A stretch of 31,420 nucleotides of DNA from a virus. Lineage: Duplodnaviria > Caudoviricetes. The stretch is from IMG/VR virus record IMGVR_UViG_3300012682_000011, positions 1 through 31,420 of that record. One strand, written 5' to 3'. The stretch's first letter is position 1. The number at the start of each line of letters is the position of its first letter. Shown one piece after another: positions 16,776-31,420 of the stretch. Below the pieces are notes generated by a model. That model had not been told where the DNA came from, ran no database searches, and saw only the letters and a list, made by a program, of their open reading frames with translations. Both the position numbers and the translations under genes were made by a program.

Positions 16776-16933
16776 CTCGTCTGTTTCGTTTACAGCCGTG
16801 TAGCTTCCATCGTACCAGTCCCCATTACTTGTGTGATGGTTGTCCACGGCGGAAGAGGTTACGGATTCGGTTGAGGATACGTTTCAGCATAGTGGGTGTT
16901 TGTTATTGTTGTGTTCATAATGAGGTCTCTACC

Positions 16934-17176
16934 CTACTCTGTCAAGTCTCCTGGTGTTTGCGGCTTGGTACTTGTTTCTGCTCCTAGTGGGGATACAGTC
17001 GATTGTGCACGCTCTTTCATAGCTCGGTTCACTTTCTGCTCAAAGGCAGCGTCTCGGGTGTCCTTGATTCTAACGTAGGCATCCTTGACCATCTCGGGTA
17101 TCTGCGGATAAAGGCTTGTAGCTAATGCTCCTAGGATAAAGCCCACAGTGAGGAAGAGTAAGGCAAATGATTTCAT
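16934..17176 (-). CDS. Small membrane-anchored protein, first gene of the late operon
   Basis: N-terminal hydrophobic helix; CCCT-ATG start context. Confidence 0.7.
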   Translation of the reverse strand: MKSFALLFLTVGFILGALATSLYPQIPEMVKDAYVRIKDTRDAAFEQKVNRAMKERAQSTVSPLGAETSTKPQTPGDLTE

Positions 17177-17227
17177 AGGGCTGAGGTTAGGTTTCCTCTA
17201 GTAAAGCATAGTTTGTCCTTAGTAACC

Positions 17228-17262
17228 AAAAAAGCCCGTCATAGCTAGATGCTCAGGGCTTT
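17228..17262 (-). terminator. Terminator/attenuator in the leader of the late operon
   Basis: Minus strand AAAGCCC...CGGGCTTTTTT; long loop. Confidence 0.5.
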
Positions 17263-17310
17263 GGTGGTACAAGCGGGCTAACGAGTTGTGCCACTGCAGG
17301 TGGTAATCCA

Positions 17311-17378
17311 TTAATAGAACATTTACACCTGAAAGTCAAGAACGGCTATTGACAAAGCCCAGGCAGGGAAGGTGTAAT
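17311..17378. promoter_or_regulatory. Back-to-back sigma70-like promoters with an operator palindrome between the -35 boxes
   Basis: Minus: TTGACT(17339-17334)-17-TATTAA; plus: TTGACA(17349-17354)-18-TGTAAT; AGAACGGCTAT at 17339-17349. Confidence 0.6.
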
Positions 17379-17382
17379 AGGT

Positions 17383-17612
17383 GTAGCCGTGTACAAGCGG
17401 CGCAAAGCGAGTCGATGTGTGATTAGCTCCCTCCACTAAAAACAACAGCTACCCTGAACGGCACAACTAGGTCTACAGTATAAAAAATCCTAGCTCTGGC
17501 TACCCCCTGACCCGTTCATACCGCACCTGACTAATATACAGTGTTAGCGGACAACAGACTTGCCTCATAGCCTCGCTGAACAAACTCTCCTATCTGTAGA
17601 GTAAGGGGGGTT
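17383..17612 (+). ncRNA. Candidate structured non-coding RNA or origin-associated transcript
   Basis: About 230 nt without a credible ORF, downstream of a promoter; complementary pairs GTAGCC/GGCTAC, TAGCT/AGCTA, CTAGG/CCTAG, TGAACGG/CCGTTCA, CCGC/GCGG. Confidence 0.4.
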
Positions 17613-17617
17613 ATGTC

Positions 17618-17830
17618 CTAAACCAGTGCATACCACTCAGTACTTTGTCGCATTAATCGCTCCCAATCCTCTAACTCTCTCTTCACCTCTACCTGTTTCA
17701 CACTGTACTTCATCCGCTTCATATCTTTGAGGTAGGCTTCAAACTCACTGTCCCCTTGAAAGGTTAAGGTGGGCTTACATATGTGTTTGGGGTTGTGGTG
17801 GTCAGTGATGGTGAGTAAGGCAGTAATCAT
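17618..17830 (-). CDS. Hypothetical protein with its own promoter
   Basis: 70 aa ORF about 25 nt downstream of a consensus promoter. Confidence 0.65.
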   Translation of the reverse strand: MITALLTITDHHNPKHICKPTLTFQGDSEFEAYLKDMKRMKYSVKQVEVKRELEDWERLMRQSTEWYALV

Positions 17831-17854
17831 ATATTTGTTTTAGTAAATTAGACT

Positions 17855-17883
17855 ATAGTACCAAAATATAGCCCAGTTGTCAA
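17855..17883 (-). promoter_or_regulatory. Sigma70-like promoter
   Basis: TTGACA-17 bp-TACTAT on the minus strand. Confidence 0.75.
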
Positions 17884-17900
17884 TTAGTATCAGGTTCACA

Positions 17901-17978
17901 CCCTCCACTTTGCCCCACTCTATTCCACTTCTATCCTACTTTCGCTCTACTTTTAACCTACTTTTAACCTACTTTTAA
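17901..17978. repeat. Seven helically phased CYACTY repeats
   Basis: ACTY cores at 17907, 17917, 17927, 17938, 17949, 17960, 17971 (spacing 10,10,11,11,11,11). Confidence 0.8.
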
Positions 17979-17989
17979 TCACAGCCACC

Positions 17990-18022
17990 AAAAAACCACC
18001 CATTCAGCCGAGGTGGTTTTTT
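17990..18022. terminator. Bidirectional intrinsic terminator
   Basis: AAAAAACCACC-loop-GGTGGTTTTTT. Confidence 0.75.
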
Positions 18023-18115
18023 CTTGGTGTAACTAATATTCTCACTAAGGCAAACTGCAAGGAAAGTGCAAACCATCTGTAGTGGTTCTCCCCTAGTATA
18101 CATGAGGATGTCAAA

Positions 18116-18153
18116 ACAAAAAGAGCCCTGGAAACTGAGAAGGCTCTTTGTGT
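18116..18153. terminator. Terminator-like hairpin
   Basis: ACAAAAAGAGCC-loop-GGCTCTTTGTGT. Confidence 0.5.
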
Positions 18154-18221
18154 GCCCAGTACATTTCGGTACGGGATTTACGGCAACCATACACGATAAT
18201 GGCTAATCTGTAAAGTAGCTA

Positions 18222-18250
18222 TTGCCTAACAAGAACCGCTCTGCTACTGT
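18222..18250 (+). promoter_or_regulatory. Promoter giving a leaderless mRNA for 18257; operator in the spacer
   Basis: TTGCCT-17-TACTGT, ATG 6 nt downstream; AGAACCGCTCT at 18232-18242. Confidence 0.65.
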
Positions 18251-18256
18251 AGGCGC

Positions 18257-18439
18257 ATGATACCTTCATTTACCCAAGAAGAACTACAAGAGATAAACAA
18301 GATGCTGCAACGAGAGCGAGGCAGTAAAGGCGGCAAAGCCTGGTGGGCAAGTCTTGACGATGAGCAGAAAGAAGAGCGTAAACGCAAGCTCTTAGAAGGC
18401 CAAAAGAGAAAGATGAAACAAAACATAAAGCCGCTCTAA
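18257..18439 (+). CDS. Small basic putative DNA-binding regulator (GSKGGKA...L..EQKEE type)
   Basis: 60 aa, RGSKGGKAWWASLDDEQKEERKRK; flanked by operator-like palindromes. Confidence 0.7.
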   Translation: MIPSFTQEELQEINKMLQRERGSKGGKAWWASLDDEQKEERKRKLLEGQKRKMKQNIKPL

Positions 18440-18483
18440 TAGCGAGTAACTAAGGGTAACGACTTGAATACTAGCTGGAAAGA

Positions 18484-18511
18484 TTGACAGAGCCGTTCTG
18501 TATGATACTGT
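18484..18511 (+). promoter_or_regulatory. Main early promoter with operator
   Basis: TTGACA-16-TACTGT with extended -10 TGn; AGAGCCGTTCT at 18489-18499. Confidence 0.65.
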
Positions 18512-18719
18512 TAGTGTATTAGCAACGAAGGCAACAAGCCAGCTTGACAATTCGACCCCATGCCCTCTAACTCGAAATGGTCCAAGAGGGCTCCAATTCA
18601 TTCGTTCCTAGTGAGTCACTTCGTATTCATAGCTTGCCCCTCCTTTAAGCTAGTGAGTGCACCAGCGAAGTGGCTCAGTGGGTGTGAACCCAAAGCATAT
18701 AAGCATAAGCACAAGTACT

Positions 18720-18851
18720 ATGAGTGAAAAGAAACTCACGAAAGTTTGGTTAGTGATGTTAGTTGGCCTGTTTAGCATCTTCTATATGATGCCTGACAGT
18801 AACTACAGTAAAAACCGCTGCATCCAACTCGCAATGGAGTGTGCACGATGA
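18720..18851 (+). CDS. Small membrane peptide (MSEKKLTKVWLVMLVG...), 43 aa
   Basis: ATG at 18720, one hydrophobic helix, ATGA coupling to the next gene. Confidence 0.6.
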   Translation: MSEKKLTKVWLVMLVGLFSIFYMMPDSNYSKNRCIQLAMECAR

Positions 18852-19027
18852 TTACGAGCTACAGCGACCAGGCCGAAGATCAGACATTACTCAAAATGGA
18901 GCACGAGGCAACAATGAGCCCAGATGACGAGTATGTAACCGTTATTTCAAAGGGATTACATATTCTCATAAGGAAATCGTTGACACATTCACATCACACA
19001 CTAACAAGCATTACATACACGATATGA
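18848..19027 (+). CDS. Hypothetical protein
   Basis: ATGA overlaps at both ends. Confidence 0.55.
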   Translation: MITSYSDQAEDQTLLKMEHEATMSPDDEYVTVISKGLHILIRKSLTHSHHTLTSITYTI

Positions 19028-25233: not shown

Positions 25234-25400
25234 CCGCAACACAGCGAGATCAATTAATACTCGAATCACTAACAGAAATACTAAAAGCTGTCGTAGCCAA
25301 GCACCATCCGTTCTCACCAAAACGCAAAACAATCATTCAATTAGTAGATAGGCTGGAGAGTGCCATCAATGAGACAGAGGAAGAGGCTTCACACACGTAA
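25230..25400 (+). CDS. Hypothetical protein, 56 aa; not in the track
   Basis: ATGA coupling; last early gene. Confidence 0.6.
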   Translation: MTATQRDQLILESLTEILKAVVAKHHPFSPKRKTIIQLVDRLESAINETEEEASHT

Positions 25401-25603
25401 GAGAGCGTCCCCTCTTCAAACCATGAGAGTACCCCTCTAACCTGATAGATCAATTGAGAGAGGGGGAAAGTGGGAGTGGGCGAGGGTGATCTACTCTGAT
25501 TTATGCCTCTACCGTCAAGGCATTAACGAAATGAGCCAGAGGACGGTGGGGGAGTGGTGTTTTGGCTATTGTGATAGGTGCTCAATCTATGTTACAGTTG
25601 AGC

Positions 25604-25664
25604 TGGTTCATGTGACATTCCCTCCATGACCACCCTGGATGCTCCAACTCATTCGGGGTTTTTT
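25604..25664 (+). ncRNA. Candidate sRNA of about 60 nt (hairpin with C-rich loop plus terminator)
   Basis: TTGTGA-18-TACAGT (extended -10) upstream; TGGTTCATG/CATGACCA stem; CCCTGGATG/CATTCGGGG followed by T6. Confidence 0.5.
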
Positions 25665-25723
25665 AATGGCTGAGGGCTGGGCACGTGAGAGCGATAGTAC
25701 TAGGTGTCTCCCTTCCCTTGGCC

Positions 25724-25773
25724 AATAAAAAACAACCTCTAACATTTCTGTTTCGAGGCTGTTTTTATTTTTT
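25724..25773. terminator. Bidirectional intrinsic terminator between the early and late arms
   Basis: AATAAAAAACAACCTC-loop-GAGGCTGTTTTTATTTTTT. Confidence 0.75.
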
Positions 25774-25876
25774 CGATACTGACGTGGCTCCTTCGTTGCA
25801 ATCCTTGTTCAGACGCTTTGTGTCTACGTACGCTGACACTCTGCAAGAACTTGGCCAGGAGGGGCGTACAGTGTCT
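25724..25876 (-). ncRNA. Candidate structured ncRNA of about 150 nt with its own promoter and terminator
   Basis: Consensus promoter upstream, terminator downstream, no ATG before the terminator, extensive self-complementarity. Confidence 0.6.
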
Positions 25877-25881
25877 TGCTT

Positions 25882-25910
25882 AGTGTATGACGAATAGCTG
25901 TGATTGTCAA
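25882..25910 (-). promoter_or_regulatory. Sigma70-like promoter directly after the holin stop
   Basis: TTGACA(25910-25905)-17-TACACT(25887-25882). Confidence 0.8.
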
Positions 25911-26198
25911 CTAGATAGCGATTTCTCCACTTACAGGAGCCGTGTTTTGAAGTCCTCCTTGAACAATGATACCTTCACGATATGCACCAATCGCTTTGTT
26001 GAGTTGTCGTGCAATGGTGTAGGCTGCAATCAAGAATCCTGAAAGCTTAATAAAGAGTGGGTACAGAGGGTTGTTAGGGTCAATGCTGCCGTTAGCGGTT
26101 ACTTGGTTGAATACTTCGGCGAGGCCCAGTAGTAGGCCAGGGAGGGCGGCAGAGAGGGTAAGCCAAAATTCGCTTCTTCGGTAGACAGGTTTGTCCAT
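25911..26198 (-). CDS. Putative holin
   Basis: KPVYRRSEFWLTL N-terminus, two hydrophobic helices, downstream of the endolysin. Confidence 0.7.
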   Translation of the reverse strand: MDKPVYRRSEFWLTLSAALPGLLLGLAEVFNQVTANGSIDPNNPLYPLFIKLSGFLIAAYTIARQLNKAIGAYREGIIVQGGLQNTAPVSGEIAI

Positions 26199-26215: not shown

Positions 26216-27133
26216 TTATTGATTAGTAAAATTTGTGCCAAGAGCGGCTAGATAGTTCCCTTGTTTGCTCTTCAGCCAAAGGGTACTAGTGTGCGCTCTT
26301 CCGTTTAACAAAATGGTGTACGATCCACCCTCTACACTTCCAAGGGCTGTCAACTCATCGCCTGGGACAAGAAGAGCCATAGGTGATCCGTTTATAATGG
26401 GTGCTCCTATCCAGGGCTCAGCTAATGGTGCGGTAGTATTTGGGGATGTGCGTACTTTAAGCCGCACTAATGCTTGTACCTTCCTCGGAAATCCAGAAAC
26501 TAAGGGAATTGGTGCAACCTCAATGGGTACATGTACGGTAACGGGGGCATAGTCCCAATTGTAGGTTTCAGGGTCTATGAAGTTGTTAACGTTGGTCCAG
26601 TATGTTCCTGTCCAGTTGGTGGCTATGTCTAAGTGTAAATGGTCACCTGTAGTATATATTCCGGTATTTCCTGTAAGAGCGATAATATCGCCTGCTTGTA
26701 CTTCACCTACCGTTTTTATCACTCTATCAAGGTGCATAAAGCGCATCATCACAGCGTCATGGTCGGGCTGGTAGTACACTTGCGTACCTCCTTGTAACCA
26801 TGCCCCTGAAACTACTTTAACAATACGTCCCTTAAACGGAGCTCTAAGTGGTGTCCCCTTAGGTGCTCGGTAGTCTACCCCTAAATGCTCACGGGTGTAC
26901 CAGGTACGTTGCTTGAATAAGTAGCCTCCAATTTGTCGATTCTGTAGGGGAAACATTGAGGTTTGATTAGAAGGTGGGGCATTAAGAAGTCTCAGTAACT
27001 CGCTCCTGAGTCGGTGGTACTTACGAACCCCTAGAATATAGAGGAATACATACAGTCCCGACTTCAGGTGTGTTTCGCTGACATGTGGCATAGCCAAGCC
27101 AACGAAAAGATCTATGGGAAGCGAGTCTAGCAT
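26216..27133 (-). CDS. M23-family peptidase endolysin with a C-terminal SH3-like domain (alternative start at 26956)
   Basis: HLGVD (HxxxD), FMHL, TGNTG.YTTGDHLH (HxH), FIDP motifs. Confidence 0.9.
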   Translation of the reverse strand: MLDSLPIDLFVGLAMPHVSETHLKSGLYVFLYILGVRKYHRLRSELLRLLNAPPSNQTSMFPLQNRQIGGYLFKQRTWYTREHLGVDYRAPKGTPLRAPFKGRIVKVVSGAWLQGGTQVYYQPDHDAVMMRFMHLDRVIKTVGEVQAGDIIALTGNTGIYTTGDHLHLDIATNWTGTYWTNVNNFIDPETYNWDYAPVTVHVPIEVAPIPLVSGFPRKVQALVRLKVRTSPNTTAPLAEPWIGAPIINGSPMALLVPGDELTALGSVEGGSYTILLNGRAHTSTLWLKSKQGNYLAALGTNFTNQ

Positions 27134-31013: not shown

Positions 31014-31420
31014 TTAGCCCATTACAACTGCTTTGATTGCGTTTAAGGCAGGAGCTACGGCAAATGTAACAGTTACAGCGGATGTAGATGTGTTCACAAC
31101 ATCAGCTTCAACGACAGCATTATCAGCAGCTTGCCTAAGTTGGGTAATAACGTCTTGGGTTCCTAAGTTGTGAGTCAAGGTGATTGCGGTAGCTGTTCCG
31201 TCACCAATGGTAAAGGTTTTCTTTACAGGGAAACTAGCGAGAGAAACAGGGGTAACAGCTACGGTGCTATCTGTTCTGGCTTCAGCTTCAGCAGCGGTTG
31301 CGTACTCAGCAAGTCCTAGTGCTGTACTCGTTGCTCTATCTACATTGGCCTGTACAATTGTCCAGTTAGCCCCAACGGTTGCTTGATCTCCAGCGGCACT
31401 TCCGTCCACAGTACAGATGA
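31014..31420 (-). CDS. 3' part of the tail fibre gene starting at 1273 (variant allele)
   Basis: Same reading frame across the end overlap; ends ITLTHNLGTQDV...AIKAVVMG. Confidence 0.85.
   Translation of the reverse strand, partial: ICTVDGSAAGDQATVGANWTIVQANVDRATSTALGLAEYATAAEAEARTDSTVAVTPVSLASFPVKKTFTIGDGTATAITLTHNLGTQDVITQLRQAADNAVVEADVVNTSTSAVTVTFAVAPALNAIKAVVMG
31070..31420. repeat. Terminal direct repeat, copy 2
   Basis: Matches 1-351 with 28 substitutions. Confidence 0.95.

Follow-up and report, generated by a model that had tools for sequence, protein, structure and literature searches.

Some small phage RNAs are stand-alone units with their own sigma-70 promoter and an intrinsic terminator, for example lambda OOP and P22 sar. 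The unit described here resembles them in this respect, but lambda OOP and P22 sar overlap an mRNA to which they are antisense, and the unit has no such overlap. Racr, the viral solitary repeat units, are likewise phage-borne and intergenic, and each possesses its own promoter and a single repeat-like element without cas genes (Camara-Wilpert et al., 2023; PMC10651486). According to the available text of that report, the SRUFinder rule asks for at least 90% identity and at least 90% coverage of a known repeat together with a score of at least 41.1 bits, and the Racrs that were tested belong to types I-F, I-E, I-C, and V-A, with III-A units being listed in the supplement (PMC10651486). In the literature searched, as far as its available text goes, no type III-A Racr with an experimental test was found. 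The crlRNA/CreR-type RNAs contain one repeat-like segment that keeps the 5' handle, a spacer-like stretch, and a 3' hairpin instead of a second repeat. They are described in the available text as adjoining cas operons and as guiding type I Cascade to a promoter (10.1101/2024.12.27.630466). The vsgRNAs are small phage RNAs of 90–150 nt with a bulged stem and a terminator, and sequestration of a Cas protein is proposed for them in the text available (10.64898/2026.06.01.729453). The phage RNA is similar to each of these in general layout. In its shape it is also similar to 6S RNA (RF00013), which is a promoter-to-terminator rod with a central bubble.

The window, by which the whole stretch of DNA that was analysed is meant, comprises the 31,420 bases of a whole, linear virus record. 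The completeness of the record is estimated at 42%. It may be nearer to 80% complete, since close capsid relatives are present on contigs of up to about 40 kb. Capsid relatives at 55–64% identity include several on contigs of 31–40 kb. The stretches 21–317 and 31014–31409 suggest that the record is a permuted, incomplete genome. Near the end of the record, over 31173–31327, a contig of DNA run X1 differs at 28 positions. Genes on the minus strand encode terminase subunits, a P22-like portal, a major head protein, an SU10-type adaptor, a tail spike, and an M23 endolysin, and those on the plus strand are Erf-like, HNH-like, and NinG-like. The RNA unit follows a holin-like ORF (Table 1). No Pfam or PHROG match was found for this ORF, and it has one relative at 61% identity, on an 88-kb contig. 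Among the named atlas clusters, a holin cluster is the nearest (0.85), which is a lead only. The endolysin (26216–27133) probably starts at the Met at 26956, which is 59 codons into the longest ORF, and 20 of 20 relatives begin there or later.

Table 1. Features of the RNA unit and its immediate surroundings (nt 1 of the RNA = 25876).
Feature	Position	Strand	Remarks
Holin-like ORF, 95 aa	25911..26198	-	Upstream of the RNA unit; putative holin, from its position and hydrophobic stretches
-35 box TTGACA	25905..25910	-	Begins at the first base past the stop codon of the holin-like ORF
-10 box TACACT	25882..25887	-	17-nt spacer to the -35 box
Rod-shaped RNA body, nt 2–103	25774..25875	-	Predicted fold; putative start at 25875–25876
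5' arm, pairs with the spacer-like 3' arm	25857..25875	-	Forms the outer helices (duplex of -16.2 kcal/mol)
5' strand of the central bubble	25852..25856	-	CC pairs with GG ahead of the putative cut in the second-best fold
Apical loop region	25825..25834	-	Contains two 6-nt palindromes that overlap; compatible with chance
15 nt identical to the 3' end of 37-nt type III-A CRISPR repeats	25795..25809	-	Two-copy genome scan
8-nt tag-like segment ATTGCAAC	25795..25802	-	Putative Cas6 cut at 25803/25802, 73 nt past the predicted start
20-nt spacer-like segment	25775..25794	-	Paired with the 5' arm; no second genome match above 14/20
Intrinsic terminator hairpin	25724..25772	both (likely bidirectional)	Flanked by A/U tracts on either side
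Separate terminator of the convergent plus-strand operon	25632..25665	+	Terminator scan

An earlier note on this DNA had placed a promoter at the base after the holin stop, and this was borne out. The sequence TTGACA-17-TACACT is found at 25910..25882 (minus strand), directly 3' of the stop codon of ORF 25911–26198, and it matches 10 of 12 consensus positions. Loose promoter sites are not above chance by count in the window (13 found, 18.5 expected). Strict sites of the form TTGACA-N16-18-TANNNT number three where 1.36 are expected, and 18 of 100 shuffles reach three. Each of the three lies outside a list of 43 genes that covers 83% of the window, although this list omits three short doubtful ORFs, one of which (18392–18601) overlaps the strict site at 18484. 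Since the strict sites are all outside the listed genes, the position of the promoter, and not the count, is the evidence; the sites look selected by position, though not by number.

The terminator that the note had placed about 100 nt downstream was found as the hairpin at 25724–25772, which leaves 103 nt of body between it and the promoter. It folds at -17.8 kcal/mol on the minus strand, with its A/U tracts, and at -12.7 kcal/mol on the plus strand. Because the hairpin folds well on both strands, it looks bidirectional. It is absent from the nine sites called by the terminator scan. Close to it, a 24-nt inverted repeat (79%) at 25658–25733 links the two convergent terminators through their U tracts. 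The same stretch also repeats an 8-mer and a 6-mer that are present in the RNA body; the inverted repeat and these recurrences are chance-compatible. There is no ATG ahead of the terminator loop, as had been reported, and the 24-codon GTG frame is present. A 35-codon TTG frame (25739–25846) had been missed. Both of these non-ATG frames have their start codons in paired regions. A promoter-to-terminator scan identified the unit at 25724–25910 as the only ORF-free unit of this kind that was found in the phage genome. The proposal of a stand-alone non-coding unit is thus supported by the promoter position, by a rod that extends from the predicted +1 to the terminator, and by the lack of a credible ORF. 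This is probably a real small RNA gene of some kind.

The region from 16900 to 19000 is a divergent control region with seven TTGACA sites. The TTGACA site at 17349 (+) faces about 250 nt that do not contain an ORF of 50 aa, and a second non-coding transcript is possible there. On the plus strand, 25400–25665 is a second stretch largely without genes. It has a G-quadruplex-like run at 25462–25486 and several hairpins (z -1.1). An ORF of 32–47 codons with a CxxC-like motif is also present on this strand (25486/25531–25629).

The 103-nt body is predicted to fold into one unbranched rod that begins at the predicted +1 and reaches the terminator's A tract (minimum -30.0 kcal/mol). The first paired base, G25875, is the seventh base past the -10 box. 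The rod consists of an outer duplex (nt 2–20/85–102), a bubble of 5 by 7 nt, and an inner stem of 17 pairs with two bulges. The inner pairs are nt 26–33/70–77, 34–37/64–67, and 38–42/53–57, and the pair probability is nearly everywhere above 0.9. A rod had been drawn in the earlier note as well, but with inner UUGCA/UGCAA and AGAC/GUCU pairs that score -16.0 against -30.0 kcal/mol for the fold given here. The promoter motif, the terminator, and a predicted rod are confirmed for the unit as first described, and its inner pairs are not. The two helices of the crossing pairing that had been offered as an alternative can be drawn. Each appears by itself as a folding intermediate, at 45 and 52 nt, and formation of the rod then displaces the two of them.

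The folding energy of the rod body alone is not significant (z -1.54; 12 of 200 shuffles), and that of the body with the terminator gives z -3.52. The shape of the rod is unusual. An end-to-end rod of equal stability was obtained in 9 of 2000 shuffles and an equally narrow ensemble in 0 of 2000, both measures having been picked after the fold was seen. Among 3132 native windows, five approach the rod shape, and the RNA's own window is one of them. Four palindromic hexamers, two of which overlap, are present in the loop and bubble of the 103 nt, where about 1.6 are expected. In the modelled structure, they could weakly hint at kissing-loop dimers.

The collections searched yielded no relative of the RNA. 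Phages gave no match with blastn, and plasmids gave four weak matches. The first 15-mer of the RNA has eight matches in viral contigs, none of which extends. The promoter together with the 5' end of the RNA was found at 20 loci, none with a similar rod, and the apical 20-mer has one coding-looking match in genomes, about one being expected. Searching by the endolysin alone was empty or at chance level. A profile of the holin, used in viral, genome, and metagenome contigs, recovered only the window's own contig and two false matches. Relatives of the phage were found by protein, at seven endolysin loci and at 80 capsid loci with 40–51% identity. The RNA was searched for in 49 of the 87 endolysin- or capsid-related records, in which BLAST returned six matches of 14–25 nt (E 0.02–0.2) and a single-sequence RNA model returned none. 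A promoter-to-terminator scan of 19 of these 49 records (two in part) found 11 other units and no comparable rod among them. In Patescibacteria, the single-sequence model matched 0 of 151 genomes, and BLAST matches were at chance level only, in 11 of 401. The RNA model is weak because it is built on one sequence, and therefore the blank searches do not show absence. DNA run X1, which may be the source of the record, contains no variant across the RNA. The unit is probably a stand-alone phage sRNA that belongs to no known family.

Known RNA families were also explored. CsrA/RsmA sponges carry several GGA motifs in loops; the RNA has two GGA motifs, and both are paired. The cores of known ribozymes do not seem to fit it. 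Rfam, including ribozymes, SRP, Y RNA, C4, and riboswitches, as well as tRNA and tmRNA, gave nothing at the gathering threshold, and ARAGORN was also blank. This agrees with the earlier statement that the RNA resembles no known family, and no published family was described for it in the literature searched. TIGR guides, as the available text presents them, form an array of CCA/UG-flanked spacers of 8–12 nt beside a Nop-domain gene (PMC12045711). Neither an array nor a Nop family match was found in the phage record.

One part of the RNA points to a possible function. Nucleotides 68–82 had been noticed, ahead of the genome scan, to resemble the end of a CRISPR repeat. A two-copy scan of 185,579 species genomes then identified nine loci, seven of which are arrays of 37-nt repeats and two of which are tandem coding repeats. 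The arrays belong to four genomes, those of Methanocalculus, a Methanocorpusculaceae archaeon, Methanoculleus, and an Aquificaceae bacterium. Type III-A genes adjoin the arrays in 4 of 4 genomes, and the last 15 nt of all five array repeat sequences are identical to 25795–25809. There is no reason to take any of these three methanogenic archaea or the Aquificaceae bacterium for the host. The 37-mer that ends at 25795 begins with GT, as do 5 of 5 repeats and 5 of 120 viral control matches. Given 17,823 repeats, which is the size of the SRUFinder library in the available text (PMC10651486), the rough chance of a terminal 15-mer within 103 nt is 0.002, uncorrected. A larger library and the approximately ten other hypotheses that were tried would raise this value, perhaps to a few per cent. 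In viral contigs, the 15-mer occurs about 160 times, and 85 of 120 occurrences examined are in open frames. The layout of the unit was found in other phages at 0 of 64 loci with promoter plus motif and at 0 of 120 loci with the 15-mer.

Cas6 is described in the available text as cutting 8 nt before the end of the repeat (PMC5965381). In the minimum fold of the phage RNA, nt 70–77 are paired. Opening nt 68–82 is predicted to cost 8.8 kcal/mol, and opening the spacer-like part 12.3 kcal/mol. These costs argue against a Cas7/Csm3 filament on single-stranded RNA. The second-best fold, at -27.3 kcal/mol, is 2.7 kcal/mol above the minimum. In it, C23C24 pair with G73G74 and nt 75–84 are open. This exposes the 8-nt tag at the base of the CC/GG stem and resembles the CC...GG that precedes the tag in natural repeats. 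No target for the spacer-like stretch was found in the phage (best match 14 of 20), no anti-CRISPR neighbour was recognised, and no CRISPR array linked to the phage was found in DNA run X1. Two short X1 contigs match the phage at 25322–25356 and 27397–27446, with 4 differences over 35 nt and 3 differences over 50 nt, respectively, and the flanks of both do not look like CRISPR repeats.

The phage RNA can now be compared with the described systems. It is solitary and intergenic. Searches for repeats and k-mers found no second copy, and no cas family was found among 47 ORFs; these results cover the record only, which may lack roughly a fifth of the genome. A promoter, recognised by its motif, is located within the 250 bp of upstream sequence used for Racr. 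The distance from the start to the putative cut is about 73 nt, and the upstream products of RacrIF1 are about 70 and 76 nt in the available text (PMC10651486). The phage RNA differs from Racr in that its match is limited to the last 15 of 37 nt, the mimic sits within a long rod, and the spacer-like part is already paired. Over the whole repeat, identity to the five repeat sequences from the four genomes is 19–21 of 37, and upstream of the 15-mer, the other 22 nt show no more than chance similarity to the repeats (p 0.23 gapped, 0.77 ungapped). For these two reasons, the RNA falls outside the published solitary-repeat rule of identity, coverage, and bit score. By analogy, it would work like Racr, yet the published test does not make it a member. 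The supplementary text on Racr, which is possibly incomplete, does not contain the 15-mer (PMC10651486). In the phage RNA, 20 nt separate the repeat-like end from the A tract and the terminator, an arrangement reminiscent of the crlRNA/CreR-type RNAs with their 3' hairpin. Unlike the crlRNA/CreR-type RNAs, the phage RNA has no cas gene and no phage target, and its repeat-like end is of type III-A. It differs from the vsgRNAs in that no cognate type II repeat was found among the matches listed, no Acr gene was recognised beside it, and its putative guide is base-paired.

The scarcity of Shine-Dalgarno sites and the TTGACA promoters may point to a host among the Patescibacteria. Shine-Dalgarno sites were found at 5 of 42 genes, with a background of 9%. 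Strong GGAG-type sites cluster at four early genes (19869, 20135, 20311, and 21051), and many of the 42 ORF starts are preceded by a C-rich motif (CCCCT, CCCC) directly 5' of the ATG. A close relative of the endolysin was present in 0 of 401 Patescibacteria genomes. Some Patescibacteria are reported, in the available text, to carry type III-A systems (PMC6509639). Cas10/Csm1 was found in 6 of 386 Patescibacteria genomes, and arrays with the exact repeat end were found in 0 of 401. One of the six (G106) possesses a Cas10/Csm1 gene and a short array ending in CAAGGATTGGAAC, which is identical at 12 of 13 positions. This array (L473:16300–16546) has four repeats, partly degenerate, and is beside the Cas10/Csm1 gene, which contains two internal TAG stops. 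Among the six, one genome besides G106 showed an array in the stretches examined, and its repeat is unrelated.

The exact last 15 nt of type III-A repeats are the one specific clue to function, and for this reason the RNA of about 150 nt is tentatively read as a decoy for the Cas6/Csm of a host type III-A system. The guess in the earlier note of an anti-defence RNA or decoy gains from this repeat end, but its suggestions of a switch or an antitoxin, and of self-cleavage as in a ribozyme, found no support. The rod itself could instead be the working part of a real phage sRNA, soaking up another host protein such as a dsRNA-binding sensor, a nuclease, or a regulator, and the 15-mer would then be due to chance. 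This is conceivable, if somewhat doubtful: the rod spans exactly the distance from the predicted +1 to the terminator and its ensemble is very narrow, but no partner is named, the 15-mer is left unexplained, and the searches of Patescibacteria (model and BLAST) found no match beyond chance. Doubt is greater that there is no separate gene at all, in which case the hairpins would be the 3' end of the late lysis transcript, made up of a stability or RNase III-type processing element and the terminator, and the promoter motif would be weak or due to chance. The late operon does need a terminator, and no other is called between the stop of the holin-like ORF and the hairpin. The count of promoter-like sites, the modest z of the body energy, and the lack of any conservation found are also consistent with a transcript end. 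However, a strict promoter is found within the first 29 nt past the stop, the rod begins at the expected start site, and no other ORF-free unit from promoter to terminator was found by the scan.

Because its shape invites the comparison, 6S RNA was tested carefully. An unbranched rod with a central bubble would be expected if the RNA were a minimal 6S-like mimic of a promoter, binding sigma-70 RNA polymerase and dampening transcription in the host. Patescibacteria possess short 6S RNAs of 142–197 nt with conserved GGGA and CCCACCT motifs, and therefore hosts of that kind use the 6S mechanism. RF00013 matches were found in 23 of 151 Patescibacteria genomes, seven of them above the cut-off. At E values up to 10, however, RF00013 does not match the phage RNA. 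A model made from 18 Patescibacteria 6S RNAs recovered 5 of 5 held-out loci, one of which is nearly identical to a training sequence, and found nothing at the phage RNA. The phage RNA is also shorter (103 nt), its bubble is small (5 by 7 nt, whereas about 15–20 nt of the 5' strand are open in several Patescibacteria 6S folds), and it lacks both conserved motifs, so that a 6S-like role appears distinctly unlikely. It is very unlikely that the RNA acts as an antisense or antitoxin RNA by pairing with an mRNA of the phage or the host. It has its own promoter and terminator, it is convergent with the plus-strand operon, and an 11-mer is common to it and the leader of ORF 20135. However, shared 10-mers and 11-mers are at chance level (5 and 1 seen, about 6 and 1.5 expected; a 10-mer in common with 18522 was selected post hoc and is not counted), and no start region stands out by duplex energy. 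In addition, a separate terminator about 60 nt away serves the plus-strand operon, the RNA is not faced by any small hydrophobic ORF of the toxin kind, and the arms are locked in the rod. The chance is slimmer still that the RNA is a viral single-guide RNA for Cas9 or a compact Cas12. Two layouts were considered, a 25-nt guide followed by a repeat:anti-repeat stem starting with GUU, and an anti-repeat and repeat followed by a 20-nt 3' guide. The bulged stem does begin with GUU at nt 27, there are exactly 20 nt from the repeat-like end to the A tract, and the available text describes vsgRNAs of about 90 nt that consist of a guide, a stem, a tail, and a terminator (10.64898/2026.06.01.729453). 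But among the matches listed (at least 121 loci), there is no CRISPR array starting with nt 27–33. The arrays with the exact 3' end are all of type III-A and none is of type V, and either putative guide is paired in the rod, with a probability mostly above 0.9 at nt 2–20.

Under the decoy reading, the host RNA polymerase would transcribe the unit apart from the late operon. The RNA would shift from its minimum into the second-best fold, in which CC/GG closes the stem and the 8-nt tag is single-stranded. Cas6 could then bind and cut there, which would leave a 5' piece of 73 nt and a second piece with the tag, 20 nt, and the terminator. These products would tie up Cas6 or Csm in complexes without a useful guide. 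Immunity would thus be lowered, as Racr RNAs do for type I systems. In a more specific and unlikely version, the RNA would be a crRNA that is pre-annealed to its own dud target, a self-poisoning anti-CRISPR mimic of the type III-A crRNA:target pair. A single Cas6 cut at 25803/25802 would leave the tag and spacer-like piece paired to the 73-nt 5' piece, which is mismatched beside the tag. Csm would load this occupied guide and would never switch on Cas10 signalling. Such a mimic would retain the terminal 15 nt of the repeat alone and would therefore escape current solitary-repeat searches.

If the RNA is a plain rod that acts as a decoy for some other protein, it is one more orphan phage sRNA and is of modest interest until relatives appear. 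If it is a decoy for type III-A Cas6/Csm, RNA anti-CRISPRs would extend to type III-A. A mimic may then keep just the Cas6 site and the tag inside an unrelated rod, and searches that demand 90% of a repeat would miss the whole class.
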